Assembly: GCA_965203805.1 (NCBI GenBank)
Contig: OZ241917.1
Coordinates: 2,944,001-3,008,000, forward strand
Length of the DNA: 64,000 nt
Source: Candidatus Latescibacterota bacterium
GTDB lineage: Bacteria > Latescibacterota > UBA2968 > GCA-2709665
Direction: 5' to 3'
Under the pieces are notes generated by a model. The model saw only the letters and a list, made by a program, of their open reading frames with translations, made no database searches and was not told the DNA's origin. Position 1 is the first letter of the stretch; each line of letters opens with the position of its first letter. The position numbers were made by a program, and so were the translations under genes. Below, piece after piece: positions 2,827 to 24,830 of this stretch.

Positions 2827-3076
2827 CGCAAGGTCTGACTCTTGTCGAATGTAGCTCTTTACTTCACATCGATTGTTTCCCATATTAAACCGGGCCTTCA
2901 ACGAGTGTACTGAACCGCGTCGACGTCGGCGAAGGCCTTGAACAGCGGCACGGGGTCAGCACGATTGGTGAACGGCTGCCGCGCCGCCACGAAATCGTCT
3001 TCGGTCCTTATCCGCGTCTTCGGCCAACGACGCGGCGCCGGGAGTAACTCTACACCACGTGACAGGAGGTAGAACC

Positions 3077-3397
3077 ATGGCCAATTATATGTTCCGCACC
3101 AGGTACACGCGGTCGGGTCTCGAGGGCCTGCTCAGAGAAGGAGGCACGGGTCGACGAGAGGCTTTGAGGCAGACCATCGAAGGGATGGGCGGAAAGCTGG
3201 AGGGCTTCTACTACGCGATGGGCGATGACGATCTCATCCTGATCGCGGAGATTCCCGATCAAACCACCGCGGCAGCCATCGCGCTGAATATCGCCGCCGC
3301 AGGGGCACTGGAAGTCTCCACGACGGTCCTGGTATCGCCGGAGACCATCGACGAAGCGGTGAACAAGAGCGTGCCGTACCGCCTGCCTGGCGAGTGA
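3077..3397 (+). CDS. GYD domain-containing protein
   Basis: AGGAGG RBS; GGKLEGFYYAMGDDD pattern; ~106 aa. Confidence 0.85.
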   Translation: MANYMFRTRYTRSGLEGLLREGGTGRREALRQTIEGMGGKLEGFYYAMGDDDLILIAEIPDQTTAAAIALNIAAAGALEVSTTVLVSPETIDEAVNKSVPYRLPGE

Positions 3398-3465
3398 CGC
3401 GAGCGAAACCTCGTCGAAGACTCGTCACCATTCAGCCGTCCCTGATGCTCGGTCAGTCCGCCGCA

Positions 3466-3572
3466 TTGACGATGAAGGCCCCTTTTCGCATCTGAGAAGG
3501 GGCCGTTTTCGCGTTCGATGTCCTGGATTTGAGGTGATTTGAACGATGACAATACAGGTCGAGGGTCAGGTC
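3466..3572 (+). repeat. 107-bp direct repeat, left copy (terminator + RBS + MTIQVEGQV gene stub)
   Basis: Ungapped match to 22552-22658 with 8 mismatches by manual alignment. Confidence 0.9.
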
Positions 3573-3585
3573 GGGATACAAACTA

Positions 3586-3822
3586 CCCTGGCGCTGCTTC
3601 GCTTTGCTCAGCCGCAACCAAATACGCGCAAGTGAATGAGGGCGCTAACGACGTATTTGTCACTCCCACCATGAGGGGGAGTCGCAGAAGCCGAGCCGAT
3701 CCCTGAGCTTGTCGAAGGGCCGGCGAAGGCTGATACAGCGGGGGGATCGCACCGCCCTTTTTGTTGACTGGCAGCATGAAAAACATGAACCCATTTTGCG
3801 GAGAAGTCTTACTGTAAGACTC
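3586..3822 (+). mobile_element. Non-autonomous miniature derivative of the IS-like element at 10833-12574
   Basis: 3586-3622 matches 10831-10867 (34/37); 3792-3822 matches 12542-12572 (29/31); no transposase between the ends. Confidence 0.85.
3659..3747. repeat. REP-like element nested in the miniature element
   Basis: Homologous to 713-861; carries a single CCCTGAGCTTGTCGAAGGG unit. Confidence 0.75.
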
Positions 3823-3987
3823 CAATTGGATTGCGCCAGAAACACCCGGACAGACGATGTCGAAGTTTGGCAATTGCCCTGTTGAATATCGAATCCTGCT
3901 TTCGTAAATTCAATGACTTTTGTTTTCTTCCCTATAGCAGAATCTGCATTGGGCAAGATTCACATCACGACCACGGTTGGAGATAAA

Positions 3988-6186
3988 ATGAGTCTTGAAG
4001 CGACCGATTCTAGGAATAACAATCCGGACCAGACCTCAACTGAAACTGGCCGTGGCGCCCCGGCGGGAAAGCTGAACGTCAGCAACTTCATCTGGAGCAT
4101 TGCCGATGACGTGCTGCGGGATGTTTTCGGCAGGGGCAAATACCGGGATGTCATACTGCCCATGACGGTCATACGCCGTCTCGACTCCGTTCTGGAACCG
4201 ACGAAAGACGCGGTGCTCCAGATGAAAGCCCGGTTGGACGCGGCAGGTGTGACCAACCAGGACGCGGCGTTACGCCAGGCATCCGGCGAGGCCTTTTACA
4301 ACGCGTCACCATTCAGGCTCCGCGATCTGACCTCCCGGGCCAGGCAGCAGCAGTTAAGCGCCGACTTCGAGGCGTACCTTGACGGGTTCTCCCCCAATGT
4401 GCAGGAAGTCATCGACAGGTTCAAGTTTCGCAATCAGATCCCTGAATTGGTGGAGAACGATTTGCTCGGGTTTCTGCTTGAGAAATTCCTGGATCCGGCG
4501 ATCAACCTCAGCCCCAAACCCGTGCTGAACGCTGACGGATCCGTGCGCCTGGAACCGCTCGACAACCACGGAATGGGCACTGTGTTCGAAGAACTGATAC
4601 GGCGTTTCAACGAAGAGAATAACGAGGAAGCCGGCGAGCACTTCACGCCTCGCGACGTCGTACAACTCATGGCGCGGCTGATATTCATACCTGTTGCCGA
4701 CGAGGTCAAATCAGGCACCTACCTGGTATACGACGGCGCTTGCGGCACCGGCGGCATGTTAACCGTCGCCGAAGAGACGCTCACCCGACTTGCCGAGGAA
4801 CACGGCAAAGACGTATCGGTCCATTTGTACGGCCAGGAAATCAACCCCGAAACCTATGCCATCAGCAAGGCCGATCTTATCCTGAAGGGCGAGGGCGTCG
4901 AGGCCGACAACATGCGGTATGGCTCGACCCTATCCGCCGACGCCTTCCCCGCCAACGAATTCGACTTCATGTTGTCCAATCCTCCCTATGGCAAGAGCTG
5001 GAAAGGCGACCTGGAACGCATGGGCGGCAAGTCTGACATTCGGGACCCGCGTTTCATTGTGGACCACGGAGACGATCCGGAGCACTCGCTCATCACCCGT
5101 TCCAGCGACGGTCAGATGATGTTCCTGGCCAATATGCTGAGCAAGATGAAACAGGACACATCACTCGGAAGCCGCATTGCCGAGGTCCACAACGGAAGTT
5201 CCCTTTTCACCGGCGACGCCGGACAGGGTGAGAGCAACATCCGCCGATGGATCATTGAGAACGACTGGCTGGAAGCAATCGTCGCGCTTCCGCTCAACAT
5301 GTTCTACAACACCGGCATCGCCACATACATCTGGGTGTTGTCGAACCGCAAACCCAAGCATCGCCAGGGCAAGGTGCAACTCATAGACGCCACGCAATGG
5401 TCCAAACCGCTACGCAAAAACCTCGGCAATAAAAACTGTGAACTGTCGGACGAAGACATCCAGCGCATCTGCGATGCGTTCCTTGCCTTCGAAGAGACCG
5501 AGCAATCGAAGATATTTCCGAATGAAGCGTTCGGTTACTGGAAAGTCACCGTCGAACGTCCTTTGCGACTGAGTGTCGAGCTGACACCGGAACATCGCCA
5601 GCGCTTCCGCACAACATGCAAAGACGCGAACGAAGAACTACTCGCCGAGGTCATAGATCGCGTGGCGTCGGAACTAGGCGACGAGCCTCACGGTGACTTC
5701 AACCGGTTCCTGGAAGTCGTTGCAAAGTACGCGCCTGAGTGCGGGGTTAAACTGACAACGGGACGCAAGAAGCTGCTTCAGACCACCCTGGCATCACGCG
5801 ACGAGACCGCGGAGCCCGTTATGAAGAGGATCCATCGTTCAGGAAACGTCGAACCCGATTCAATCCACGGCCGTGTTGAAACCACCATCGACGGTAGAAA
5901 ACGCATCGTCGAGTACGAACCCGACAGCGAACTTCGCGATACCGAACAGGTGCCTTTGCTCGAAGAGGACGGTATCGAGGGCTTCCTGCGCCGTGAGGTG
6001 CTGCCTTATGCACGGGACGCCTGGTACGATCCGGCCAGCGTCAAGATCGGATACGAAATCAGCTTCACGCGCTACTTCTACAAGCCCCAACCGATGCGAA
6101 CGCTGGAAGAAATCCGGGCCGATATACTGGCTCTGGAGCGGGAAACCGAGGGACTGTTGGGAGAAATACTCGGACAGCAATGCTAA
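3988..6186 (+). CDS. hsdM: Type I restriction-modification methyltransferase subunit
   Basis: GEHFTPRDVV, YDGACGTGGM (SAM binding), SNPPYG (N6-adenine catalytic motif). Confidence 0.97.
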   Translation: MSLEATDSRNNNPDQTSTETGRGAPAGKLNVSNFIWSIADDVLRDVFGRGKYRDVILPMTVIRRLDSVLEPTKDAVLQMKARLDAAGVTNQDAALRQASGEAFYNASPFRLRDLTSRARQQQLSADFEAYLDGFSPNVQEVIDRFKFRNQIPELVENDLLGFLLEKFLDPAINLSPKPVLNADGSVRLEPLDNHGMGTVFEELIRRFNEENNEEAGEHFTPRDVVQLMARLIFIPVADEVKSGTYLVYDGACGTGGMLTVAEETLTRLAEEHGKDVSVHLYGQEINPETYAISKADLILKGEGVEADNMRYGSTLSADAFPANEFDFMLSNPPYGKSWKGDLERMGGKSDIRDPRFIVDHGDDPEHSLITRSSDGQMMFLANMLSKMKQDTSLGSRIAEVHNGSSLFTGDAGQGESNIRRWIIENDWLEAIVALPLNMFYNTGIATYIWVLSNRKPKHRQGKVQLIDATQWSKPLRKNLGNKNCELSDEDIQRICDAFLAFEETEQSKIFPNEAFGYWKVTVERPLRLSVELTPEHRQRFRTTCKDANEELLAEVIDRVASELGDEPHGDFNRFLEVVAKYAPECGVKLTTGRKKLLQTTLASRDETAEPVMKRIHRSGNVEPDSIHGRVETTIDGRKRIVEYEPDSELRDTEQVPLLEEDGIEGFLRREVLPYARDAWYDPASVKIGYEISFTRYFYKPQPMRTLEEIRADILALERETEGLLGEILGQQC

Positions 6187-6723
6187 GAATCGCCTTTATT
6201 CAACGTAGTCCTTTACAAGGACGGGATTATCCCCATATTAAAGGCAGCGTTTAACGTGGCTGACGTCGCGCGCCATAGTCAACGTAGCCTTTACTATAGG
6301 TCGAATAAACGCGCATGCAAATCGTCAGCGTTATACACCAGAAGGCCGGCGCGACCCGGCGAGCAACGGACATCGAGTCCTAGAATAACTCTGCGAACGC
6401 ACGATAATTTCGATGGGCGACATGGAGGATCTGACGGGAACCACGTACACGGAAGCCAACAATGTCCTTAACCGATTGACTCGTTGCTGCAAGTTGCATG
6501 AATTCACCTGTCAGTCGCGGAACCGTAGGTTCATTAATGGGAGCTAAGTTTACCAGTTCCACGAATCCGGCTCGAATGGTGACCAGTGATCGTCGCACAG
6601 CTGATTGATCAACCTCAGAGGGATTTAAGTGTGTGACAGTCGCAGTAAGTCCAGCGGCTCTGGCGGTGGTGCTACAATTGCGCTGACAACGTCGACGACG
6701 ATACTTAATGAGAGGTATTCACA

Positions 6724-7194
6724 ATGAATTTTCTATTATTTCGCTTATTCTCTATCATAGGATTTGTGGCTGTGGAGGTGCCCGTAGAGGCTCAGAGTCC
6801 GACTGATAAGGCCTCGATTTCCGAAAGGGCAATGGAGTCGATCACGTGGTGCCACCCCTTGACCGTGATAGAACTCGTCATCGTGATTCTTGTGTTCGTT
6901 GCAATGCCGATTTATTCGTGGTATGTGAGCAAGAACGTAAAAAGCCCAAACGACCTTCCAAAACGTAAGGGTCTCAATCTGCCCGCAGGATCCGTGAGAA
7001 GCATGATTGCGTTGTTAGTCGTCGGCTCGTTCGTGAATTTCCTGATCTTTGGGGAGTCGGTGTTGGCTACGCATTTCGATAAGATCCTCGCCGCATTCGG
7101 GACGCTAAGCGGTAGCATCATCGGCTTTTATTTTGGTAATCGTAGCGCCGAGCCCCTTCAAACGGGCGACAATTCAATTGAAAAGCCAATGTAA
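6724..7194 (+). CDS. Hypothetical membrane protein (signal-like N-terminus plus ~3 TM helices)
   Basis: GAGGT RBS; hydrophobic segments; GLNLPAGSVRSMIALL and IIGFYFG. Confidence 0.7.
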   Translation: MNFLLFRLFSIIGFVAVEVPVEAQSPTDKASISERAMESITWCHPLTVIELVIVILVFVAMPIYSWYVSKNVKSPNDLPKRKGLNLPAGSVRSMIALLVVGSFVNFLIFGESVLATHFDKILAAFGTLSGSIIGFYFGNRSAEPLQTGDNSIEKPM

Positions 7195-7307
7195 TTAAGT
7201 TTGGATCGGATTGCGTTTCCTTACGACGTAGGCCGAGAAACTCGTTGAGAACGACTGAAACGAGATACGATTACACCTGTGGCTTACCCCATCGGAGGAT
7301 GGTCGAA

Positions 7308-7790
7308 ATGAAACTGGACAGGCTCTTCAAAGACTTCAATCTACAAAAGGTGAAATTAAACCTAAAGGTAGTTCAGTTCGAAGTTTCCTTTCAACAAGCA
7401 GACAAGGATGCGGCTTGGGACCTCTATGTGGAAATGCTTACCAGAGTCGTAACTCAGGCACTTCCACGCGATGTCGGAGATGAGCTGGCGGCACTGGAAA
7501 GCGTACACTCCCTTTTTCCAGCAACGCGTGAAATCTTACGACATCACGGGCGGGCATCATTACATTTCAGTAAGGTCGCGGTTCCCGTGCTTAATCAAAT
7601 TATCCGGCCCTTCACCTCAAAGTGGCACAGGCAGAGCTTAGGCGGCGCTTTCGACCGTGAGACCGGACGTGCGGAGTTTCGAAAGGAACTAGAAAGTTTG
7701 CAGGTAGACCTACGCAGATACAACAGGATGCTTGCGGAGATTGCTAATGTGGAAGATTTGACCGACTTGGAAGAATGTAAAGGAGGATAG
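7308..7790 (+). CDS. Hypothetical alpha-helical protein adjacent to the TIR gene
   Basis: GGAGG RBS 9 nt upstream; AAWDLYVEMLTR...LNQIIRPFTSKWH; 2 nt from the next start. Confidence 0.8.
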   Translation: MKLDRLFKDFNLQKVKLNLKVVQFEVSFQQADKDAAWDLYVEMLTRVVTQALPRDVGDELAALESVHSLFPATREILRHHGRASLHFSKVAVPVLNQIIRPFTSKWHRQSLGGAFDRETGRAEFRKELESLQVDLRRYNRMLAEIANVEDLTDLEECKGG

Positions 7791-7792
7791 CA

Positions 7793-8350
7793 ATGCAGAA
7801 AGTTCCACGACACAGGGTATTTGTAAGTTTCCATCAGGAAGACGACTTCTACAAGGATCTGTTCGTACAAATGATGGAAGACGACATTGTGGACGAATCA
7901 GTTGGAGATGGTGATATAGACGATGACAATTTGGCTACCGATACAGTCCGCAGGATTATCCGTGATGGGTACATCAGAGATGCTACGGTCACGGTCGTAC
8001 TTGTCGGACCCTGCACGTGGCAGCGAAAACACGTTGACTGGGAAATAGGTTCTAGCTTGCGAGCTACCAAGCGGAATCCTAGATGTGGCCTGTTGGGGAT
8101 TCTGCTTCCGAATCATCCGAACGCAACTACTGAAAAATACAACTCTCGTTTAATACCGCCGCGTCTTGCTGACAATACTTGTGGAGAAGATCCTTACGCG
8201 CTAATCTACGATTGGACATACAAGACTTCAAGCGTTCGAAATTGGATCCATCGGGCCTTTGTTCGGAGAGATGGTACGCCACCAGACAACAGTAGGGTGC
8301 AGTTCCGATACAACAGAAGTGGATCCTGTTCGACGGGTTGGCAGAGCTAG
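7793..8350 (+). CDS. TIR-like domain protein (DUF1863/ThsB-like)
   Basis: RVFVSFH, TVTVVLVG.CTWQRKHVDWEI with the TIR catalytic Glu; AAGGAGG RBS. Confidence 0.9.
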   Translation: MQKVPRHRVFVSFHQEDDFYKDLFVQMMEDDIVDESVGDGDIDDDNLATDTVRRIIRDGYIRDATVTVVLVGPCTWQRKHVDWEIGSSLRATKRNPRCGLLGILLPNHPNATTEKYNSRLIPPRLADNTCGEDPYALIYDWTYKTSSVRNWIHRAFVRRDGTPPDNSRVQFRYNRSGSCSTGWQS

Positions 8351-8355
8351 GAGCT

Positions 8356-9660
8356 ATGACCAGCATTCCGCTTCCATACCCAGCCTACAAACCGACAGGC
8401 GTCCCGTGGCTAGGGGACTTACCGGAGCATTGGGAAATGCGCCGGGGTAAGTCCCTCCTGACCCCGGTTGATATTCGTTCCGAGACCGGGGACGAAGAGT
8501 TGTTAACAGTTTCTGCTCAGCAGGGAGTTATCCCAAGGGAATCCACCGACGTAACTATGTTTAAAGCAGAATCATACGTTGGCTACAAGCTATGTTGGCC
8601 GGGAGATCTCGTGATCAACAGTTTGTGGGCTTGGGCACACGGATTAGGCGTTTCCCAGCATTACGGCATCGTTAGTACCGCCTATGGTGTCTACCGCCCG
8701 TTGTCAAGAATACATACTCAATTTATCCATCAGTTCGTCCGCTCAATCCCATTTCAATGGGAGTTGCAAGTACGCTCAAAGGGAATATGGGTATCGCGAC
8801 TTCAATTGACCGACGAGGCATTTCTAAATGCGCCGTTCCCCGTCCCAACCGTCGCCGAACAAGCCGCCATCGTCCGCTATCTTAATCACAGTGAAGAACG
8901 AATCCAGCGCTACATAAGAGCGAAGGAGCGGTTCATCCGGCTCCTTTGGGAAGAGAAGCAGACCGTAATTCACCGCGCCGTGACCCGCGGTCTCGATCCG
9001 AACGTACCCCTCAAACCCTCAGGTGTTGAATGGCTCGGCGACATCCCGGCACATTGGCAGGTTTCCAGGGTGAAGGCTGAATTCGTCTCTTTGGACAATC
9101 GTCGCGTGCCATTGAGCGCGATCGAGCGAGGAGCAATGGAAGAGCGACGATATGACTATTATGGCGCATCTGGTGTAATTGATAAGGTTGAGGACTATAT
9201 TTTTAACGATGAAGTATTGCTAATTGCAGAAGATGGAGCAAATCTCGTTCTTCGCAATTTACCACTTGCCATCATAGCTCGCGGAAAGTTCTGGGTGAAT
9301 AACCACGCACATGTATTAAAGCCTCGACATGGCAACCTTGGCTATTTGGCGGCGGCAATGGAGAGTCTAAACTATACTCCGTGGATATCCGGGGCAGCAC
9401 AACCGAAACTCACACAAGATCGACTCTTAAACATCTCGATCGCCGTGCCACCCATAGTTGAGCAAGATCAAATCATCGCCAAGGCAGAAGAACAGACAAA
9501 CAGACTGACTTTGGCCATCACACGTGCTCGGAGACAAATCGAGTTGATGCAGGAATACCGCACGAAGTTAATTGCGGACGTGGTTACCGGCAAGCTGGAT
9601 GTGCGCGGGACGGAGGTCGATTTGCCCTTTAGATTTACTGAGACGGCACCGGCAGTATAG
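8356..9660 (+). CDS. hsdS: Type I restriction-modification specificity subunit
   Basis: Two repeats of K.SGV.WLG.IP.HW, P...EQ..I helices, C-terminal LIADVVTGKLDV. Confidence 0.96.
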   Translation: MTSIPLPYPAYKPTGVPWLGDLPEHWEMRRGKSLLTPVDIRSETGDEELLTVSAQQGVIPRESTDVTMFKAESYVGYKLCWPGDLVINSLWAWAHGLGVSQHYGIVSTAYGVYRPLSRIHTQFIHQFVRSIPFQWELQVRSKGIWVSRLQLTDEAFLNAPFPVPTVAEQAAIVRYLNHSEERIQRYIRAKERFIRLLWEEKQTVIHRAVTRGLDPNVPLKPSGVEWLGDIPAHWQVSRVKAEFVSLDNRRVPLSAIERGAMEERRYDYYGASGVIDKVEDYIFNDEVLLIAEDGANLVLRNLPLAIIARGKFWVNNHAHVLKPRHGNLGYLAAAMESLNYTPWISGAAQPKLTQDRLLNISIAVPPIVEQDQIIAKAEEQTNRLTLAITRARRQIELMQEYRTKLIADVVTGKLDVRGTEVDLPFRFTETAPAV

Positions 9661-10965
9661 TAATCCGATCGAATCTCGAAAAGTGTCACTATCTACGAAA
9701 ATGGAATGAACAATGCACCGATCTGAGGAATCTCAAGATGACGATTTTATGCGTGCCGTGAAGATCGGGGAAGAAAACGCCGAATGCCTGATGCAGATGC
9801 AGAAGTGGTGCAAGCATGTTGAAATTGAACGAACTTCGGAAGGGCTATATGCGCAATTTACAGGCCTACCTATAGCAAACCACAGCTTGGCGTGTCCGAA
9901 AGTGGAGGGTAAGGCGGAGTCTATGAATCTCCGCTGGATTTTCTCGGATTTTCTTGCAGAATACTGCGCCACCTGTCCTCATCACGCACCAAACGGGGAC
10001 ACTTCGTGGGGTAGGGAGATCATTGACAGGCGCCGGAGAGAAGCCCAAGAGCGCCAGCAAGCAAAAGAGGAGGAAGCCTCCCGAATATCCAGGCTACGCG
10101 AAGAGTTACGATCAATATCCCGTGGCATTAGTGCGGAAACAGAGCCCGAATCGCACCAAGTCCTCGGATATTTAGAAGCGATATTTTCAGAAACCGAAGA
10201 CGAACGAATCGAAGCCTTCGAAAGTTTGAAGCAATCTGCCCGCGTGGGTGCAGATCTCTTTCCGGAGGCTGCTGTCGACTTGGCCTTGACGCTTGCAGGC
10301 ACCAAGGATTTTGCCATTTTCCTGCTTCCTGTCTGTACTGAACTTGCAAAGAAGCGCTCCGATTTAGGCACAAACCTAGGTCGTATAGCAATCGACAACA
10401 TTGAGAAGGGACTATGTCCAGAATTGTCCGCTTCGGTACTTGATGCACTCGGCGACGGCATTGGGTATCCACTTAGCGAACCGTCTATTGAGAAACTGCT
10501 ACTTTCACAGGATCATGAATACCCAATCGGTGGCTGGAACGAAAGTAAACCTGAGTACCCGCATAGCACCGCAGTTATTGTACGCAGTTTTGACGCCGAT
10601 CCGTACGTGGTTCAGAGCATTGTCCGTCGCGAACTGCAGAATGAGAATCCCGCTATACGCTTCGGGTTGTGTGGAGCAGTCAGGCTTATACAAAACCAAC
10701 GCCCCGAGCTAATTCGGAACCTGCTCGATGACTTCCTTCAATCACTCGATCTTCGAGAGGTCGCACGGTCGGGCGACGGGACGCCATCGGATCAAATTAT
10801 CGGCATTCTGCAATCAGCATTTCAATATTCCCCTAGCGCGGCTTCGCTATGCTCAGCCGCAACCAAAGAGGTGGTAGTCAAGAGCAGATTGTTTTTGGGT
10901 ATGTAAAACGGCGTTCATCCCCTATGATGTTGGTACCCACCGCCATCAAGGTAAGGAGGAACGCC

Positions 10966-12528
10966 GTGAAAGACTTCGTGGACCAATATAGTGAAAAAAT
11001 CACGGGCGTGGTATCCTGTTTTGATCGGATTCTGTTCAAGGGGTATCTGCCGCTGGGATTTGGAACTGCGATGGAGCGTTTCATCAGCAATCAAGGTTTG
11101 TTGTTGAAGGATTTCAAGCGTTTTGTAACGACGCATTCCGAAACGATCAAAGCGCACGCGGAGGCGATGGCGAACAAGCGCGAGCGCCCGTTCCTCTATC
11201 TCGACCGCAACAACGTCAGGAAAGAGGATGAAGCGCGACGCATCGCCCAACGAGATGGGATCACACGCGGCCTGGTCTGTGTGTTTCGCGCCGTGGAAGG
11301 CTGTCAGAGTTTCAAGCTGGTGCCGGGGGAAGGAAGGCCTCGCCTGCGCAACGCCCAGCGGAAGTGCCTGTGTTACTACTTCTACTATATCGACCGGGAG
11401 TTCGGGTTGTTGCATGTTCGCATCCAGTCGTGGTTCCCCCTGGTGGTGCAGGTCTGTCTCAATGGCCACGAATACCTGGCGCGCAAGCTTGATAAAAACG
11501 GCATTGCCTATGACAAATCAGACAACGCGTTTCTTTGGATCGACGATGTGGCCCGGGCGCAACGGTTTGCCGATCGTTTTGTCGAGAAAAATTGGCCGCG
11601 CATTCTCTCCGCGCTTGCTGGCAGGGTCAACCCCCTGCTCAAAGACCTGCTTTCGGAAATGGACTATTACTGGGTCGTTGACCAGGCCGAGTTCGCCACC
11701 GACGTGATGTTCCAAAGCCCCCACGCCCTGAAGGTGCTGTATGAAAACCTGCTCAGACATACGGTGCTGTGCTTCTCTCCCGAGGATATCCTGACCTTCC
11801 TGGGCCTGCCTGCCGAGCATAGCCCGGCGCAGGCAGGACGCAAACTCCACGGCAACTTTCAGGGCGAAGTCCTCACGGACTTCAAGAACAAACGCCACCC
11901 CGGCGCACGGGTCAAACACCGGATGTGTGAGAACTGGATTAAAATGTACGACAAACAAGGGTGCGTACTACGCGTCGAGACAGTGATCAACCATCCAAGG
12001 CAGTTCAAGGTCCGCCGCTGGGGCATACGGCAAGGACAACGGATGATGGGCTGGTATCCCATGGCCAAAGGGGTGGCCAACCTCTACCGCTATCGGGAAA
12101 TCTCATTGACGGCCAACCAACACTATCTTCAGGCGCTGTCCGCCGCACCGAACACCGCGAAGAGCCGTCACAGCCTCACCGCACTGGCCCGACCACGCAG
12201 GCACAAGGGGCGTACCTATCGGGGCTTCAACCCTGCCGATACCAACGACCTCGCCCTCTTCACCGCCGTCTTGAAAGGCGAACACGCCCTGATGGGCTTC
12301 CGCAATCAAGACATCCGCAAACACCTCTTCAAACAACCCAGATCCCTCGACCAGCGCCGACGGCAGGCCAACGCCGTCAGCCGACTCCTCAAGCGACTAC
12401 ACGTTCGGGGCCTGATCGCTAAAATCCCTCGTTCCAGAAGATGGCGCGTCACACATTCCGGACACGTTACACTTGCTACTTCCCTGACCCTTTACGACAA
12501 CCACACAACCTCTATGCAAGCAGCGTGA
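10966..12528 (+). CDS. Putative transposase with Rep_trans-like motif and C-terminal winged HTH
   Basis: AAGGAGGA RBS + GTG; IKMYDK..VLRVET motif; C-terminal SRLLKRLHVRGLIAKIPRSRRWRVT; only long plus-strand ORF in the insertion. Confidence 0.75.
   Translation: MKDFVDQYSEKITGVVSCFDRILFKGYLPLGFGTAMERFISNQGLLLKDFKRFVTTHSETIKAHAEAMANKRERPFLYLDRNNVRKEDEARRIAQRDGITRGLVCVFRAVEGCQSFKLVPGEGRPRLRNAQRKCLCYYFYYIDREFGLLHVRIQSWFPLVVQVCLNGHEYLARKLDKNGIAYDKSDNAFLWIDDVARAQRFADRFVEKNWPRILSALAGRVNPLLKDLLSEMDYYWVVDQAEFATDVMFQSPHALKVLYENLLRHTVLCFSPEDILTFLGLPAEHSPAQAGRKLHGNFQGEVLTDFKNKRHPGARVKHRMCENWIKMYDKQGCVLRVETVINHPRQFKVRRWGIRQGQRMMGWYPMAKGVANLYRYREISLTANQHYLQALSAAPNTAKSRHSLTALARPRRHKGRTYRGFNPADTNDLALFTAVLKGEHALMGFRNQDIRKHLFKQPRSLDQRRRQANAVSRLLKRLHVRGLIAKIPRSRRWRVTHSGHVTLATSLTLYDNHTTSMQAA
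11805..11837. repeat. 33-bp palindromic insertion in frame within the transposase
   Basis: CCTGCCTGC...GCAGGCAGG 9-bp stem; encodes LPAEHSPAQAG; reverse complement is 28/33 identical to the outer element at 28569-28631. Confidence 0.75.
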
Positions 12529-13917
12529 CCAAACTTCTATGCATTTTGCGTTGAAGTCTTACTGTAAGACTCTAAGGCGGTTGATACGCACCTTGCCCGG
12601 TCAATCTCACGCGTTCGCCCGGCCGTTCAGAAAAACATCGTCAGTGTTTACGAAAGACAGTTCTTAGCTCAGAGGGATCGATGGAAAAAGAACGAAAAAG
12701 AGACTGAACGAAAAGAGGTCTCGGAATCAGAAAATGTGGCGATTCAACGCCTACTGGCTTGGGCAAAAGATGACGCACTAGAAATTGAGATTCGCCGCGA
12801 TTCGGTTCAGGCGTTGAAGTCCGCCTGCACATACGCGACTACGGCCATGCTATGCCATTTTGACTTCCTCTTAGGATATTATGCAATCGTCAGCGGTAAC
12901 GAAAAGCCACCGGATCCACCTCCGAGGATTCTGCATCCCAATCAACCACGGGACACTCAGCTTGATCAACTGCAACTATTCAGGCGCAACCAACTCTGGG
13001 GATTCTTTAAGCAAAACTTGCGTTCATGCCTGCACGAGATTTGCAAAGCAAAGCCGCTAGAGGCGTTCGATTTGGTCTGCGGCTGTTTGGAAGACTCCTC
13101 AGAACCGCTTGCGGACGATTTCAAGGCGCTCTGCGTGTCGCTTCTTGGTGAACTTGGCCGAGACTACAGGCTTCAGCCACGTGTTTTGCCTCATTTGTGG
13201 CGCGCATTGATGGACTACGAATCTGCATGGGTTCGCACCAAAGCCTTACATTCTACTGTCGAGTTGTTTTCATTGTCTTCAACCTCACCACCGGCAAACC
13301 TCGTAGACACAATGATCATCCACCTCCAAGATTCAAAGGTCGGCGTTCACCAAGCTGCCTTGCGAGTTGTGTCTACATTTCCCCGTTGGTTTGACAAGAA
13401 CCAGTCGATCGAAATTCTTAGCTGTCTCGGACGACACCTTGATGTGTACGGCGATGACAAGTACCAACTTGAAAAAATATGCACAGGAATACTGAAAATC
13501 TCTTGTCGTGATAAGCGCCTCAAGCCAGTCGCTTTGCGTATGGTTGAGTCTGTGTATCCGACAGGAGAGGAATTTGTAGATAGAGACATCGCAGAACAGC
13601 TGACTCATTTCTACAAGCCAAGCAATAGATTCGCAGATTCAGTGGCCAAGGATGTCGGTACCTATTTGGCAAGCTATGACCGAGACCGCTACAACCATTA
13701 CGGGTTTTCGGAACGTCTCCGTATGTTCAAGTGGCTGCACGAACTGCCGATAGAAACACTCCAACGTGTCGCCGATAACCTTCTTTCGTCCGCAGAAGAG
13801 ATGGCTGGGAATGATTACTGGGAATCCATGCATTTCGCAAGTCTCTTTCAACATTTGCGGATGGCTGAATACGAGCATGCCGTGTTGGATTCTGTTATAA
13901 AATCTTTACCTGAAGAA

Positions 13918-14206
13918 CACTGCTGTCCAAGAACCGTCGGATTCTCAGAGATAAGGTTCGAAATATAGCTTCAATTGGCGATTTTGGACGGGTTTGACCC
14001 GGATAATGAAAACCAGGTTGCCATCGTCTGCGCAATGCTGTCCAAGAACAAAGTGACTCATCCAGTGGCCATAATCGTGCTGTTCCCGTCTCATTAAGCC
14101 CGTGAAATAGGCACTTTTTGAAACTCACGCTACCTTGGTCGAAGCGCTGCTTCGCGGAAGTGAACCAGATGCTGTCCAAGACAGAAACCGATTTTGGACA
14201 GGTGTG
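13918..14206. mobile_element. 289-bp MITE with 9-bp target-site duplication
   Basis: CCTGAAGAA at 13909-13917 and 14207-14215; imperfect TIR CACTGCTGTCCAA / TTGGACAGGTGTG; removal restores the reading frame. Confidence 0.88.
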
Positions 14207-14340
14207 CCTGAAGAACCAAGGTTTGAGACGCTCCGTGCGGATTTATATAAGATCGCGATGATCTCTGCAGGAAATGCGTCATTACAGGCTGGTGACAAAA
14301 CGACGGCTGTAGAATTCTTCGAAAAGGGAAGGCATGGAGC

Positions 14341-15837
14341 GTGATACGGGAACCGGAATTGGATCTTAAGCATGCCGCTAATTCAGCCCGGCTTATCTAT
14401 GACATACGCGTGGTTTTGAACTCGAGTACTGAATTCAATAGGGATTGGGCTAAGGAGATCGGTTCTCTGATTGACCGTATTGACGAGATCCTGGCTAAGA
14501 CGCCAATCGCGCATGTCTCATTCGAGTGGAAAGTCATGATTGCTGGGTTTCGTGTCTTATTGGGTCAGGTAAACAGTGTGGCGATTGCCGAGGGCGGCGA
14601 AGGTGACTTGACTATCGAAAGAGAAAAACGTGATGTCCTTTTCGGCGAAATGAAACGATTGGTCACGTCAAATGCCGGCCTATTACCGATCAGCACGAAG
14701 TCATCGTGGCAATCATTGCTCAATGCAGGGACAGTTGATTCCGATAGATTACGCGAATTTCTGTCAATGGTCCCGTTATCCACGTTATATTGGCAAACGA
14801 GGGAATTTGACCTTCCAGATCGGAATGCGTTTAAAGGAACCGAAGCAAAACCGAAACCGATTGTACGGGTTGTTGTATTTCTGGATAATGCTCCGATCGC
14901 AAGCCCACAGCTCTTGCGGCCAAACATTCTATATCCGCTGAAATTTAGAGTCCATGGTGTAACTTGGCCTGTCGACGGGAAGCGCTTACGCCTTGATTTG
15001 ATGACTACACTTCCACAAGAGGAGTTCTCATTGTCCGAATACACTCTCGACGCACCATCTTGTATCAAAAATGGTGAGTACCAGGGTGAATTGGCGGGCT
15101 ATATCAAGTTCAACTCGGCGCAAAGCAGCATGTTGGATGATCTTGCATTCACAGTTCGCGGAGCATTCGATACACCTGACGGGCATCCTATCGAGGTTCC
15201 AGTTATTGGTCACAATGAGTTGCGCCTCAAAATTGTCGATGAAGTCAGTCATCCTTTGATGACGGGAAACCGACGCTTGGACAGGCACGTTGCGGAGCTT
15301 ATTTCAACTCTGATATCAGACTGTCCTGAAGTTCGAGCCGAACTACCTAGCTTGTTGGTAATGCTTCACGCTTTGACCGGCTTGTTGTCTACTTATGCAC
15401 AAGAAGCCGTTTTCAAAGGGAGAAGCGACGTTTCTGAGTCGGAATTCCAGACAAAAGTGACGGGAGATTTGCGAAGACAACTCGGACCAGACGTACAAGA
15501 ACACCCACACCAGGCGGGCGGAATCCCTGATATCAGATTTCGAGGCGTAATTGTTGAGCTAAAGGTCGAAAAAGAAAACGGGAATCGAAATCACATAGCG
15601 AAAAAATACGCGGCCCAGGCAGTTCAATACGCCAGCCCTGAGGCGCGGCAGGTAAGTATTCTCCTTGTACTGGACCTGACGGAAAAGGAAAACCCACCCG
15701 GCGACATTCGCAATGACATTATGCTTACTGATGTACCGACTCATGGGACAGTTGATAGTGCCGAAAAATTCCCGTCCAAGGCGTTTGTGTTCGTGATAAA
15801 CGGGAACATGAAGAACCCATCAAGTTACTCCGCGTAA
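14341..15837 (+). CDS. Hypothetical protein with C-terminal PD-(D/E)xK nuclease-like domain
   Basis: ESEFQ...QEH...GGIPDI....VELK...QAVQY pattern; GTG overlaps the upstream TGA. Confidence 0.75.
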   Translation: MIREPELDLKHAANSARLIYDIRVVLNSSTEFNRDWAKEIGSLIDRIDEILAKTPIAHVSFEWKVMIAGFRVLLGQVNSVAIAEGGEGDLTIEREKRDVLFGEMKRLVTSNAGLLPISTKSSWQSLLNAGTVDSDRLREFLSMVPLSTLYWQTREFDLPDRNAFKGTEAKPKPIVRVVVFLDNAPIASPQLLRPNILYPLKFRVHGVTWPVDGKRLRLDLMTTLPQEEFSLSEYTLDAPSCIKNGEYQGELAGYIKFNSAQSSMLDDLAFTVRGAFDTPDGHPIEVPVIGHNELRLKIVDEVSHPLMTGNRRLDRHVAELISTLISDCPEVRAELPSLLVMLHALTGLLSTYAQEAVFKGRSDVSESEFQTKVTGDLRRQLGPDVQEHPHQAGGIPDIRFRGVIVELKVEKENGNRNHIAKKYAAQAVQYASPEARQVSILLVLDLTEKENPPGDIRNDIMLTDVPTHGTVDSAEKFPSKAFVFVINGNMKNPSSYSA

Positions 15838-16347
15838 TGGCTTTGGCGAATTCGCGTCAAGGCCAAGGCATTTGGTGCGAATTCGTTGAAATCATCTCTA
15901 TCGTAACAATTGACTGAGATCGCCCCACCGATTCTGCGTGATACGGCATCCGATCGGACACAACGCTTTCGCCACCTATGCAACCAACGCCCGCTCGGCG
16001 ATATCAGGCGATACGGCTAATCAGGAATTGTGCCATTAAACCAGAAATAGACTCAAAAGCATAATTTCAGCACAATTGCGGCATAATGTATTTCATAGAT
16101 ATCTGTTTATTTGGATCTTATTACATTGTTCCTTTTTGACAAAGCATTATGCCTTACGCAAAAAAGTCGCAATTCATATGTTCGGTGAGCGGATCCCTCC
16201 TGATATGATGAAGACCGTGCTCGGTTTAGCCTAACCGCGATTGCCGCGCCAACTGGGAATGCTGACCGATGTCGGAGGTTGCCTGACGCTGGAACCTGAA
16301 TTTCCATTGGCCTGTAATTGACTGAGAAACGTCGGAACTACAATTGA

Positions 16348-16406
16348 ATTCTATAACCCATTAATTTTATTGAAGTTGTTTAATTGACGGGTAATTGACT
16401 GGAAAC
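16348..16406 (+). repeat. 59-bp AT-rich direct repeat, copy 1
   Basis: 57/59 identical to 18254-18312; contains two TAATTGAC units 11 bp apart. Confidence 0.9.
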
Positions 16407-16595
16407 GCCACCTGCCGACCGGCGTCCGCGCGCGATTCACCTCGGATGTGCATACCGAAAAGATACTCGTAAATGAGGCGGTGGCCAATCTGTCAGAGAA
16501 GACCGATCAGCCGCACTCCTGCGCCCCGAGGAAGCCGTGATCATCGGCAGGGCGGAGATCGCCAATGGCTTCGACCTGACGCAACAGGCCGCAAA

Positions 16596-18062
16596 ATGAC
16601 AACCAATAGAAATCGAGACTACCTGCTCGACCTGATAAGAGAATTGCGCAACCTGCCTCATGAGACCGAATGGGTCGAGTTCAAGGTAAACCACCACGAA
16701 CCGAAGACCATAGGTGAGTACGTCTCCGCACTTTCCAACGCGGGAGCCCTGCATGACAAGACTCACGGATACATCCTGTGGGGCGTTGAAGATGGAACTC
16801 ACGACATTGTTGGCACAGACTTTTTTCCGGCTGTTGCGAAGAAGGGCAGCGAACCGCTGGAGACGTGGCTACTCCAGTTATTAAAACCACGCATAGACTT
16901 CCGGTTCCACGAAGTAACGATTGACGGGAAGCGGGTCGTAATTATGGAGATTGATCGTGCCTCCCGGCACCCAGTCGCCTTCGCGGGCGTCGAGTTTATC
17001 CGTATTGGCAGCACAAAGAGAAAACTCAAAGACTATCAGGAAAAGGAACGAGAACTCTGGCGCGTTTTCGACCGGGTGAGTTTCGAAGATGGCATCGCCG
17101 CCGAGCGAGTAAGTGACGGTGACGTTCTGTCAATGATCGACTACCCTGCATACTTCGATTTGCTTGAATTGCCGCTTCCCGATGGTCGTGAAGCGATCCT
17201 TTATGCATTGCAGAGTGACCGACTCATCGCCCCCGGCGAAGCGGGCGGCTTCGACATCACCAATATGGGCGCCATTTTGTTCGCCAGGAACCTTCCCGAC
17301 TTCCCGAATCTGAAGCGCAAAGCCATGCGCGTCATACAGTATCGTGGCAATGGCCGGATAGAGACATTGAGAGAGCAGGAAGGCGTTCGCGGCTATGCGG
17401 TCGGATTCAAAGGAATTATCGACTACATCATGGCGCTCGTGCCCACGAACGAAGTGATTCAACAGGCCTTGCGAAGGACGGTGCCGATGTTTCCCGACCT
17501 GGCCGTTCGAGAACTCGTTGCCAACGCGCTCATCCACCAGGACTTTCTCGTCACGGGTGCGGGACCGATGGTAGAGATCTTCGATGACCGCATTGAGATT
17601 ACGAATCCGGGCGAGCCCCTCGTGGATACGCGACGTTTTTTGGACGCATCACCCAGGTCCCGAAACGAGGCCCTGGCCTCACTGATGCGCCGGGTTCGCA
17701 TCTGCGAGGAACGGGGCAGCGGGATCGACAAGGTTGTCCTTGAAATTGAGTCATACCATCTGCCGGCGCCGCTTTTCGAGGTTCCTCCGGATTCTACTCG
17801 CGCAGTTCTCTTCGCCCACAAGACCCTGGCTGACATGGACGGAGAGGAGCGGATAAGAGCTTGTTACCTCCATGCATGCCTCAAGTACGTGATGCGAGAT
17901 TACCTTACCAATGCATCGCTTCGAGAGAGATTTGGCATCGAAGAGAATAACAAGGCTATCGCCTCTCGCCGCATTCGCGAGGCCATGGACGCTGACATGA
18001 TCAAGCCGTTTGACGAAAATGCCTCCCGAAGAATGATGAAATACGTCCCATTCTGGGCCTGA
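16596..18062 (+). CDS. AlbA_2 (Schlafen-like) + HATPase_c_4 + wHTH protein
   Basis: ETEWVEFK, SALSN, GYILWGVED; RELVANALIHQD, RIEITNPG, EERGSGIDK. Confidence 0.88.
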   Translation: MTTNRNRDYLLDLIRELRNLPHETEWVEFKVNHHEPKTIGEYVSALSNAGALHDKTHGYILWGVEDGTHDIVGTDFFPAVAKKGSEPLETWLLQLLKPRIDFRFHEVTIDGKRVVIMEIDRASRHPVAFAGVEFIRIGSTKRKLKDYQEKERELWRVFDRVSFEDGIAAERVSDGDVLSMIDYPAYFDLLELPLPDGREAILYALQSDRLIAPGEAGGFDITNMGAILFARNLPDFPNLKRKAMRVIQYRGNGRIETLREQEGVRGYAVGFKGIIDYIMALVPTNEVIQQALRRTVPMFPDLAVRELVANALIHQDFLVTGAGPMVEIFDDRIEITNPGEPLVDTRRFLDASPRSRNEALASLMRRVRICEERGSGIDKVVLEIESYHLPAPLFEVPPDSTRAVLFAHKTLADMDGEERIRACYLHACLKYVMRDYLTNASLRERFGIEENNKAIASRRIREAMDADMIKPFDENASRRMMKYVPFWA

Positions 18063-18253
18063 TCTCAATTGGCATGGATTGATCGACGGCCCGACGTCTC
18101 ACAAACCGCCAGGCATTGTATCAATTGATGAATAGATGGTCGAACGAACCAAAAATGGTCGAATGGGCCGACATATCTTTCTTTTTTAATAAGTTACGTC
18201 ACAGAGGAGCGATGGACGGCCAATTGATCAGGAAACACCCGATAGCCGTTGGT

Positions 18254-18312
18254 ATTCTATAACCCATTAATTTTATTGCATTTGTTTAATTGACGGGTAA
18301 TTGACTGGAAAC
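18254..18312 (+). repeat. 59-bp AT-rich direct repeat, copy 2
   Basis: 57/59 identical to 16348-16406. Confidence 0.9.
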
Positions 18313-18406
18313 TTCCAATGATCGCCGACGCCACTCCGCTACGTCCGTGCCCCAACCTGCTGTATACGGTCTATGCAATGCGGCATTGAAGATTGGAAGA
18401 ACGGCC

Positions 18407-22464: not shown

Positions 22465-22551
22465 AGGGTCACCGGCTTCGGGTCGTGTTTGATTGTGAGG
22501 CATCGATGCGTTCTGAGCGCCGTACCGACGACAATGGGCCGGTTCACCATT

Positions 22552-22658
22552 TTGACGATGAAGGCCCCTTTTCGCATCTGAGAAGGTGCCGTTTTTGCGT
22601 TCGATGTCCTGGATTTGAGGTGATTTGATTTATGACAATACACGTCGAAGGCCAGGTC
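22552..22658 (+). repeat. 107-bp direct repeat, right copy (includes the start of the intact gene)
   Basis: Matches 3466-3572. Confidence 0.9.
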
Positions 22659-24830
22659 CGCGACGCTGCTTCCAAACGCGGACTCGAGAATGTCCCCGTT
22701 TCCAACGGGGAGCACCTGGTGCGAACGGACGCGGCCGGGCGCTACGCCCTGCAGGTCTCGCCGGATGCGCACCGGTTTGTCTTCGTCACCGTACCCGATG
22801 GCTATCGGCCCGGTGAGGGCTTCTACCGTTCGACGCTCGGGTGGACCGGTGACCAACGCGGGGTTGATTTCGACCTCGCGAGGCTGCCGGATGGGGAAAG
22901 TGAAACCTTCTCGATGGCCCATATCAGCGACACCCACGTCGTGTTGGACGAAGACCGGACGCCGGGCAGGATGTTGTCGCAGGATCTGCGGCAACTGGTT
23001 CGCGAAGCCCGCCCGGACCTGATCGTCGCGAGCGGAGACCTGACCGACTGGGGGACGCTGGAGGAACTCGAGCAATTTCGTGACGCCATCGAGAGCGTTT
23101 CGACGCCCGTATTGCCGATGTTCGGCGGGCACGACGGGAACCAGGAGCGTTTCGGCGATTTGACTGTCGACGAGCTTGTCGCATTGAAACACAAAAGAGA
23201 GTACGCGAAGATAGAGGAGATCCTGAAGCAGCGCGAAGGCGAACCCTTCACGCGCAACTATGAACAAGTACTCGGTCCCCCGTATTCCAGTTTCGATCGC
23301 GGGCGATGGCATTTTGTCCTCTATCCGAACGAGGATAATTTCTACCCGTTGCCGGACCGGAAACGTAAGGAAGACTGGCTGTGGGCGGACCTGGCGCAGC
23401 AGCCGCGGGACCGCCGCGTCGTCGTCTTCCTTCACAAACCCCCTTCGATTCCCTTCCTCTCTGCGCTGGGCCGCTATCCTGTCAGGATCGTGATGCACGG
23501 GCATTGGCACTCCAGCAAAGTGTTCACCCACAACGGGATCACTGTCGCGGCAACGCCCCCGCTCTGTTTCGGTGGTCTGGACAACCGGCCCCGGGGCTAT
23601 CGAACCGTTGAATTTCAAGGCGCGGATTTCAGGTTTCGGCTTGAGCCGCTTTCTGACGCAACAGGCCGGTCGAACTCCTCCGCGGATAAGTCGATCCCCC
23701 TCGACGACACAGGCAAGCGCCTGCGGCTTGTCTGGACGCATCAGCTTCCGGTGGGGGTGCACCGTGCGGCGCCGGTCCGTTCCGGCGATCGGATCCTGAT
23801 AAGCCTCGCCGATGAAGGAGTTCCCGCCCAAAACGGCGTCGCGTGTCTCGACGCCGGAAGCGGCGCGCAATCGTGGCGGGTGTCTACGGACACCGCTGTG
23901 AAGAACAGCGTGGCGATCCCCCCGCCTTCCGCAGCTGCAGATAATGGGACTGATCTATGCGCCGCGGTATCCGTTGCCGGGAGATTGTACGTCGTCGAAA
24001 CGGAATCGGGACGCGTTCGCTGGAAGGCAGACCTGCCGGGATATCCGGAGCGGTGGATCTATGCTTCTCCGGTCATTGCGGGCCAGATGGTGTACGCGGG
24101 CGGCAAATCCGGCTATGGGGCGTACGATCTGACAACCGGTGAGCAACGGTGGTACACGTCGCTTGAAGGCGGCGATGGGTGGCCGTGCTACGCGAGTCCT
24201 CAGGCCTGCGGCGACCTGCTCATTCTGCTCGTCCAGCGGCGGGGGCTGATGGCGCTGGACAGGCATTACGGCAAGGTCGTCTGGGAACGGACCATGGGCG
24301 TCGAGAATCCCTACGCGCGGCCCTTGGTGGACGGCGGTGTCCTGTTCACCGGCAGCGGCGCTCCGGCGCTTCACTGGTACGGGGGCGAACCGGCGCACAT
24401 GGCGGCCCTGAACGTCCATAAAGGCGAGCTGATTTGGGACCGGCCCGTTCTTCCTTCGAGATATCCAACCGGGCTGGCGATTCGGGGCGACCGGTTCTAC
24501 GCGACCACGCCGGACGGCGAGGCGCTGTGTTTCAATCTCCACACCGGCGCGTTGCAGTGGCGATTCCGGACGGGCGAGGACCTGCTGGATATGGTACCGG
24601 CGCGCCGCGGCGTCCGATCCATCCTGGCCGCGCCAGTCTTCTACAAGGACCGTCTGCTCATCGGCGGCGATGACGGTTGCCTCTACGTACTGAATGCCGA
24701 AACCGGTGCACGCATCGGCCGCGCGGCGCTCGGATCCCCGATCGCGGCCGCTCCGTGTCTCACCAATGACGGGTTTTGCGTGGGCACGTACGACGGGCGG
24801 CTGCACTGTTTCGCTGAATGTGAGGGATAG
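22632..24830 (+). CDS. Calcineurin-like metallophosphoesterase fused to PQQ-type beta-propeller repeats
   Basis: SDTH, GDLTD, GGHD, GHWH motifs; repeated D..TG...W propeller blades. Confidence 0.88.
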   Translation: MTIHVEGQVRDAASKRGLENVPVSNGEHLVRTDAAGRYALQVSPDAHRFVFVTVPDGYRPGEGFYRSTLGWTGDQRGVDFDLARLPDGESETFSMAHISDTHVVLDEDRTPGRMLSQDLRQLVREARPDLIVASGDLTDWGTLEELEQFRDAIESVSTPVLPMFGGHDGNQERFGDLTVDELVALKHKREYAKIEEILKQREGEPFTRNYEQVLGPPYSSFDRGRWHFVLYPNEDNFYPLPDRKRKEDWLWADLAQQPRDRRVVVFLHKPPSIPFLSALGRYPVRIVMHGHWHSSKVFTHNGITVAATPPLCFGGLDNRPRGYRTVEFQGADFRFRLEPLSDATGRSNSSADKSIPLDDTGKRLRLVWTHQLPVGVHRAAPVRSGDRILISLADEGVPAQNGVACLDAGSGAQSWRVSTDTAVKNSVAIPPPSAAADNGTDLCAAVSVAGRLYVVETESGRVRWKADLPGYPERWIYASPVIAGQMVYAGGKSGYGAYDLTTGEQRWYTSLEGGDGWPCYASPQACGDLLILLVQRRGLMALDRHYGKVVWERTMGVENPYARPLVDGGVLFTGSGAPALHWYGGEPAHMAALNVHKGELIWDRPVLPSRYPTGLAIRGDRFYATTPDGEALCFNLHTGALQWRFRTGEDLLDMVPARRGVRSILAAPVFYKDRLLIGGDDGCLYVLNAETGARIGRAALGSPIAAAPCLTNDGFCVGTYDGRLHCFAECEG

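Follow-up and report, generated by a model that had tools for sequence, protein, structure and literature searches.

The short element at positions 3591 to 3822 of the 64,000-nucleotide stretch of Candidatus Latescibacterota DNA analyzed here (the window) is, in our confident assessment, an old and probably immobile MITE copy derived from an undescribed 1.7-kb insertion sequence (IS) family, and it does not form part of a composite. In itself this element, referred to below as the mini element, is an ordinary object, a decayed MITE. The interest lies in the partner family, which is an IS family that no database annotates and is very widespread. The coordinates of the mini element, of the full-length element found in the same window, and of the surrounding island are collected in Table 1.

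Table 1. Positions in the window of the mini element, the full-length element, and the features of the island that contains them.
Feature	Position	Strand	Remarks
Left 108-bp direct repeat	3466..3573	+	bounds the island
Left junction dinucleotide of the mini element	3589..3590	+	TG, preceded by CC; TA in intact copies
Mini element proper	3591..3822	+	232 bp; decayed MITE copy; ends align to the full element
Left-end hairpin of the mini element	3593..3615	+	GCTGCT...AGCCGC, followed by AACCAAA; 5/6 pairs (full element, 6/6)
Interior common to other mini elements	3651..3765	+	includes a REP-like palindromic unit
Residual right-end subterminal hairpin (family-wide type)	3783..3807	+	5/10 pairs (full element, 9/10)
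Terminal hairpin of the mini element	3805..3821	+	AGTCTTAC-T-GTAAGACT; 8/8 pairs; subfamily-specific
Right junction dinucleotide of the mini element	3823..3824	+	CA, followed by A; TA in intact copies
ThsB-like TIR gene	7793-8350		
Full-length element	10836..12572	+	1737 bp, between TA 10834-35 and TA 12573-74
ORF of the full element	10966..12528	+	520 aa; GTG start after AAGGAGG; predicted TBP-like double domain (1-395) and winged helix (400-520)
Palindromic REP-like insertion in the ORF	11803..11835	+	33 bp; in frame; 11 extra residues
Protein with LmuA-like C-terminus	14341-15837		
Schlafen/AlbA_2 and HATPase_c_4 protein	16473-18062		
DarG-like macro-domain protein	18347-19468		PADLOC E 8e-136
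hsdR	19465-22464		outside 3586-12574
Right 108-bp direct repeat	22552..22660	+	93% identical to the left repeat; includes the first bases of the gene at 22632

The mini element and its copies in the genome and the genus

The mini element was aligned with the full element, which had initially been placed at 10833-12574. The left ends are identical at 34 of 37 positions and the right ends at 29 of 31, including AGTCTTAC-T-GTAAGACT, and both ends of the mini element have the orientation of their counterparts in the full element. These values and the common orientation were already part of the preliminary description of this DNA, and they were confirmed by the alignment and by BLAST searches of the genome. 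The start given there, 3586, includes five bases of the flank and was moved to 3591. An origin of this resemblance by chance, or from a generic REP repeat, would agree with the presence in the interior of a REP-like unit that also stands alone at dozens of sites in the genome. However, when the ends of the full element were used as BLAST queries against the 5.87-Mb genome, the mini element was found with both of them (E 2e-7 with the left end and 4e-6 with the right end), the two right-end matches were reproduced in none of 100 shuffled windows, and both ends are present together in about eight copies in this genome as well as in all 14 relatives. The genome-wide E-values, the shuffles, and the paired recurrence of the ends refute the chance or generic-repeat reading, to which we assign a negligible probability.

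An nhmmer profile built with five mini elements of the window's genome produced 42 hits in that genome. Seven of these hits cover the full profile and another one is a short copy with two ends, while the remaining hits are one-ended fragments or the lone interior REP-like unit. The mini element at 3591..3822 scored 232 bits across the entire profile. Copies of the mini element were found in all 14 other genomes of the genus, with at least 7 to 26 matches listed per genome. The full-length ORF of the partner was detected in three of the 15 genomes of the genus (1, 15, and 11 matches) and a fragment of it in a fourth; the window's genome has one full-length copy only, and in two relatives the full element is multi-copy (11-15 copies). 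Forty mini elements fetched from four other genomes have a median pairwise identity of 77%, the best within-genome pair being 96% identical, and the highest identity between the window's mini element and any of these 40 copies is 83.6%. As judged from their nucleotide sequences, the mini copies are old.

The full and mini elements have about 60 bp in common at each end. The mini element has retained both termini of an autonomous element without a change of order or orientation, its 232 bp are too short for an enzyme gene, and there are many dispersed copies with differing flanks. The proposal that it is a non-autonomous relative of the full element was thus upheld, and the copies constitute a MITE family with the same ends and the same junction. 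As is the case for the MITEs of known bacterial ISs, the mini element is short and non-coding, is present in many copies, has the ends and the junction of its autonomous partner, and persists in genomes that lack this partner. Unlike them, it has no inverted repeats at its ends, its partner falls outside the described IS families, and the copy in the window is decayed. The interior does include a REP-like repeat, as had been noticed before, but this interior, which had been called unrelated, is not a one-off sequence, as it recurs in other mini elements of the genome and of the genus. On the minus strand of the window's genome, a left end at 3541420 and a right end at 3539948 are located 1.47 kb apart in the same orientation with no recognizable transposase gene between them. 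They may belong together as a larger non-autonomous derivative, or they may be two fragments.

The junctions of the window's mini element read CC|TG...CA|A. Both TA junctions and some of the hairpin pairs have been lost, and this old copy was therefore judged very probably immobile. The lack of an exact duplication in the flanks (CTG on the left and CCA on the right) was correctly described for this copy, but it corresponds to a decayed TA/TA and is not a trait of the family. Similarly, the terminal hairpin that had been described is present and fully paired, but it is confined to one subfamily and is not found family-wide. The single-strand folding energies of the ends were unexceptional (z of -0.7 to -0.9, and +1.35 for the left end of the mini element). 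An Rfam scan of positions 3300-13000 gave zero matches, and promoter and terminator scans identified nothing near the mini element and nothing above chance in the full element. In the sponge-metagenome run X1, the right part of the mini element was found joined to hsdM (3705-4100).

Junctions, empty sites, and conserved ends

The boundaries of the full element were defined by aligning the copy in the window with 21 full copies that occur in two related genomes, and they read ...CC-TA-[A/G][C/G]GCGG ... GTAAGACTC-TA-A.... All 19 full copies in which both ends are recognizable have TA at both junctions and A at position +1, and 18 of the 19 have CC to the left. Both ends could be located in 32 of the 40 mini elements fetched from the four other genomes; TA is present at both junctions in 13 of these 32, CC at positions -2 and -1 in 27, and A at +1 in 24. 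The left and right ends, read directly from the alignments, have no inverted-repeat relation to each other.

Empty sites were available for full and mini elements. Three insertion sites of full copies are empty in the window's genome, and in the cases of L037 and L046 the flanks of the empty site in this genome overlap by exactly TA. For the full element of the window, an orthologous empty site was supplied by the genome G025, and the flanks align over a single TA. Another mini element of the window's genome, at 1375305-1375546, is also present in the genome G001, and its site is empty in five relatives; the empty site reads ...GCCG-TA-ATATAC, with TA once. For a third mini element, copy C, no clean pair of filled and empty sites was obtained. 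The use of one type of site by mini and full elements is the strongest evidence that the same machinery moves them.

The TA data would fit equally well a nick after CTA at both ends without any duplication and a 2-bp TA duplication generated by a staggered cut. One rival mechanism would be a DDE-type reaction, by cut-and-paste or copy-paste, in which TA is cut with a 2-bp stagger in the manner of IS630/Tc1-mariner elements, and the mini element would be the MITE of such an element. IS630 elements have CTAG-like targets. A DDE reaction would be in agreement with the presence of TA at both junctions and only once in the empty sites, with the existence of MITE derivatives, with a target, C-TA-A/G, that resembles those of IS630, and with the five invariant acidic residues of the partner protein. 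Nevertheless, we consider it improbable. Elements of this kind are characterized by inverted repeats and encode a DDE enzyme of about 340 amino acids, neither of which is found in the full element: there are no terminal inverted repeats, the left end being unlike the right one, and no DDE match was obtained in Pfam or NCBIfam for 46 family members or with hhalign against the genome's DDE_Tnp_1 and IS110 proteins (less than 2%). In addition, the predicted core of the protein is a TBP-like saddle and the preference for CC in the flanks is one-sided, being restricted to the left.

Conservative site-specific recombination would be another way to obtain such junctions. In this case, the logic would be that of IS110/IS1111 or of serine recombinases, with a 2-bp TA core and recombination between a circular junction and a target that mimics it. 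The target, CC-TA-A, does resemble the would-be junction, TC-TA-A/G, TA is present at both junctions, and inverted repeats are lacking. However, TA is palindromic and would not fix the orientation, the target specificity covers only about 5 bp, the non-coding left part measures only 130 bp, and the protein family has no match to DEDD (PF01548/PF02371 in Pfam), serine, or tyrosine recombinase families and no invariant serine; the hhalign comparison with the genome's own IS110 protein gave 0.1%. Recombination of this type is in our opinion quite unlikely.

The features of the ends are conserved well beyond the genus. Right ends were compared among elements whose proteins are 39-100% identical, and the terminal TCTA, preceded by AAAGA(A/C), is invariant in 34 of 34. 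A hairpin located about 17 bases upstream of this terminus has 68.5% of its cells paired as compared to 58.8% in shuffles. The observed value was reached in none of 500 shuffles, controls in which the position was slid gave 28-51%, and both sides have changed in eight of the ten pairs. On the left, the layout TA-NN-hairpin-AACCAA was present in 21 of 39 scanned loci, 17 of them with CC before the TA, and the stems of the hairpin compensate each other's changes (GCGGCC/GGCCGC, GCGGGC/GCCCGC, GTGGCC/GGCCAC, and GCGGCT/AGCCGC). These comparisons show that AAAGAMTC|TA at the right terminus and the TA-NN-hairpin-AACCAA layout at the left end have been conserved across phyla. Since the MITE family keeps about 60 bp of each end together with, in its better-preserved copies, the same CC|TA|A junction, it is plausible that the ends are the cis sites, and the earlier suggestion that the two ends are the minimal cis sites is plausible to that extent.

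Three full copies in the related genomes (L038, L041, and L044) lack one recognizable end. The last approximately 25 bases of the right end are gone in L038, L041 diverges earlier, and the left side of L044 is joined to the interior of another copy, forming a partial head-to-tail pair on contig 15 of G001. These three copies could be deletions or aberrant transposition products. The orientation of 20 full copies with respect to GC skew showed no bias (9 to 11), and that of the copies in the window's genome showed a weak bias that is not significant (15 to 6).

The restriction and defense island

In the window's genome, a type I restriction and defense island of about 19 kb (3572-22543) separates a GYD-domain gene (3059-3397) from the gene at 22632. 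In six relatives the GYD-domain gene directly precedes the other one, and the island is absent as one block. The island includes, in addition to the full element, hsdM, a ThsB-like TIR gene, hsdS, LmuA-like, Schlafen/AlbA-type, and DarG-like genes, and hsdR, as well as ORFs without a family match at 6724-7194, 7245-7790, 9713-10832, and 12736-13968. The restriction system forms a single block in which the defense-type genes (6724-19468) are enclosed by hsdM/hsdS on one side and hsdR on the other. No integrase was seen inside the 19 kb. The mini element starts about 17 bp inside the left boundary, and nothing at the right boundary resembles the right end of the element. The 108-bp direct repeats that bound the island include a terminator-like hairpin and the first approximately 29 bases of the downstream gene. 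The genome G001 has a degraded version of the island at the same site.

The preliminary description proposed that the mini element and the full element delimit a composite, 3586-12574, with which hsdM, the gene for TIR, and hsdS could be mobilized. In rolling-circle transposons, for instance IS91 and ISCR, reading through a weak terminator end is a known event. A unit extending from the left end of the mini element to the right end of the full element, whether as a composite or by read-through, would be compatible with the common orientation of these ends and with an enzyme predicted to be similar to rolling-circle initiators; the damaged subterminal right hairpin of the mini element could favor read-through, and 3 of the 21 full copies in relatives lack one recognizable end. 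However, hsdR is located outside this unit, and the island has its own limits at 3572/22543, marked by the 108-bp repeats, within which it is missing as one block in the six relatives. The left junction of the mini element is TG instead of TA, and its left hairpin is impaired. Furthermore, the unit was not found elsewhere: the gene that flanks the full element on the left was identified in 2 of 40 other genomes, and both are free of the element. In two genomes, G025 and G034, the two genes that flank the full element in the window lie next to each other and the element is absent, which indicates that the full element entered later, by a simple insertion, into a gene block that is conserved in its absence. 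The 3' end of the gene at 9713 was clipped by this insertion. These comparisons contain no indication that 3586-12574 has moved as a single unit at any time; they do not support the composite, and we regard it as highly improbable. The likeness to IS91/ISCR that was invoked for it retains some indirect plausibility from the predicted fold of the partner protein, which would be that of a rolling-circle-initiator-like nickase.

The partner protein and a proposed mechanism

The 520-amino-acid product of the full element had no family match in Pfam, NCBIfam, PHROGs, PADLOC, or the PDB sequences, with the exception of a weak C-terminal winged helix. None of 46 family members had a match to Y1_Tnp in Pfam at E <= 1, and a search of the ESM Atlas with the ORF returned unnamed clusters only. 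The protein nonetheless has numerous relatives, 7171 among the 50%-identity cluster representatives of one database and 4876 among 8000 candidates scored in a second one, where those listed are mostly on 1.7-2.3 kb contigs. They are distributed in Latescibacterota, Planctomycetota, Desulfobacterota, Acidobacteriota, Verrucomicrobiota, Chloroflexota, Armatimonadota, Pseudomonadota, and other phyla. A tblastn search of plasmids produced 15 records, none of them labeled as transposase; the homologs, found in cultured Paraburkholderia, Burkholderia, and Rhodococcus, are labeled hypothetical and, once, "ArsR family transcriptional regulator". The protein labeled ArsR is a 33%-identical homolog on plasmid pOLGA1 of Paraburkholderia phytofirmans OLGA172 (NZ_CP014580.1, 252808-254322), where it sits between two cytochrome c genes. 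This locus has the layout of the family, with CC-TA-NN-hairpin-AACCAAA at the left end and a hairpin plus GAAGACT-TA-A at the right end. A search of full-text literature, the scope of which left subscription journals and ISfinder outside, identified no paper on the family, its termini, or a Rep_trans-like IS.

The AlphaFold model of the protein has a pLDDT of 88.5 as a whole and of 90.2 for residues 1-398, and it consists of a TBP-like core and a winged helix. The best matches of this model among enzymes are the Rep_trans rolling-circle initiators (pT181 RepD/RepDE and RepSTK1; PDB 4cwc, 4cwe, and 4cij) and the MOBT relaxases. Since the scores are weak to middling, they support the fold class and not homology. 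The best 50 matches in each of the fold lists included no DDE/RNase H, HUH, tyrosine recombinase, or serine recombinase chain. When the family profile was compared by hhalign with ten proteins of the window's genome, one of IS110 and nine of DDE_Tnp_1 type, the probability was at most 1.8%. In the BFVD viral library, the matches were viral TBPs and Inoviridae proteins; one of the matched Inoviridae entries is identified as a Rep_trans initiator in PMC13107129.

Residues D20, R21, E111, Y138, Y140, W236, E242, D246, Y328, R336, and E338 are invariant in 46 diverse members of the family, and K326 and K330, which flank Y328, are 98% conserved. The alignment of these 46 members contains no invariant His and no invariant serine. 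All the invariant residues are on predicted beta strands: in the model, K326-x-Y328-x-K330 is part of strand 323-330, and D20, E111, E242/D246, and E338 are on separate strands. According to PMC4797284, in Rep_trans enzymes the metal is held by three carboxylates, each on a separate strand, a conserved tyrosine flanked by basic residues is on the TBP-like sheet, and the nick is located in a hairpin beside the binding palindrome. The TBP fold is described as common to Rep_trans enzymes in PMC13107129. The location of the invariant residues on strands, taken together with the Rep_trans layout, led to the proposal that the protein is a tyrosine nickase whose activity would depend on metal and in which each repeat would contribute one candidate tyrosine. 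From its conservation and position on the strand, we infer that Y328 may be the catalytic tyrosine.

In the mechanism that we propose, a single protein of 510-520 amino acids would bind the end hairpins through its C-terminal winged helix. A saddle formed by the TBP-like beta-sheet, carrying the tyrosine and the metal-binding carboxylates, would then act as it does in Rep_trans initiators. The candidate residues are Y328, with K326 and K330, and Y138/Y140 in the other repeat, in addition to D20, E111, E242, D246, and E338. One strand would be nicked after ...YCTA, a sequence that occurs as CCTA in the left flank and as TCTA at the right terminus, and rejoining of the strands would place the element into CCTA|A sites. 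The mini elements would be mobilized in trans.

This element shares properties with several known systems. The IS200/IS605 elements, which are mobilized by the HUH Y1 transposase TnpA, also lack inverted repeats, have differing subterminal hairpins, and give rise to small non-autonomous derivatives, and the location of CCTA on the left flank only, echoed by TCTA at the right terminus, is another point in common. In contrast to them, the protein described here exceeds theirs more than three times in size, lacks a match to Y1_Tnp as well as an invariant His pair, and has a predicted TBP-like fold, and the copies of the element show no clear replication-strand bias. IS91 and ISCR are HUH Y2 rolling-circle transposons. 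They have asymmetric ends, a short conserved flank, a single gene, and possibly the rolling-circle logic in common with the element, but the 520-amino-acid protein has no Y2_Tnp or HUH match.

In the case of the Rep_trans enzymes, the model has the TBP-like catalytic fold that characterizes them, and the TBP-like sheet, a conserved tyrosine with basic neighbors, and carboxylates on separate strands would have equivalents in the enzymes described in PMC4797284; in both cases there is a hairpin beside the binding palindrome and a separate DNA-binding domain. The differences are that the 520-amino-acid protein has no PF02486 match and would have two TBP-like repeats in one chain instead of forming a homodimer, and that its gene belongs to a chromosomal element of 1.7 kb that is present in multiple copies and has both filled and empty sites, and not to a plasmid, phage, or ICE. 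An archaeal family whose logic consists of a TBP-like core, a winged helix, and a hairpin is described in PMC13107129. This family, Rep-Arvir (DUF7845 plus a MarR-like winged helix, from archaeal viruses and plasmids), resembles the partner protein in that the TBP-like core is followed by the winged helix, the cis site is a hairpin, the family is recognizable by structure only, and the same BFVD entries are matched. On the other hand, the element described here is bacterial and is an insertion sequence rather than a replicon, and no DUF7845 was present among the 25 of 34 families listed.

Considering all these comparisons, we tentatively propose, with slightly less than even confidence, that the partner element represents a new IS class. 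Its enzyme would be a tyrosine nuclease with the TBP fold, pseudo-dimeric within a single chain and akin to the Rep_trans initiators, and would constitute a third kind of transposase that nicks single strands, beside HUH-Y1 and HUH-Y2. The class would be characterized by asymmetric ends with hairpins, a CCTA|A target, and MITEs, and it would have thousands of members in at least a dozen phyla, labeled as hypothetical or ArsR-type proteins. If Rep_trans-like chemistry is true, there would be a new transposase class, and rolling-circle replication initiators would have a connection with transposons that is separate from the one through HUH enzymes. Thousands of genes would receive a corrected annotation, and many of the 1.7-2 kb orphan contigs of metagenome assemblies would be explained.

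The full element of the window carries the 33-bp insertion in its gene. This insertion is absent from the 13 relatives displayed of a 33-sequence alignment and from a metagenome contig, and the region of the model where it is located has a low pLDDT (residues 282-297). The independent sponge-metagenome run X1 contains a stand-alone 1711-bp contig that corresponds to the element without the 33-bp insertion and has the same limits. The depth of this contig is 75, as compared to about 15 for the neighboring hsdM contigs (approximately five times), and a relative in that metagenome carries several copies of the element. Contigs from four sequencing runs were compared with the region and contained neither a circle junction nor an excision joint, structures that contigs would not be expected to reveal. 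The arms of the 33-bp palindrome, which is in frame within the sole gene of the full element, are CCTGCCTGC and GCAGGCAGG. It belongs to a separate repeat family with at least 107 units in the genome, 65 of them of exactly 33 bp and some of them inside mini elements.
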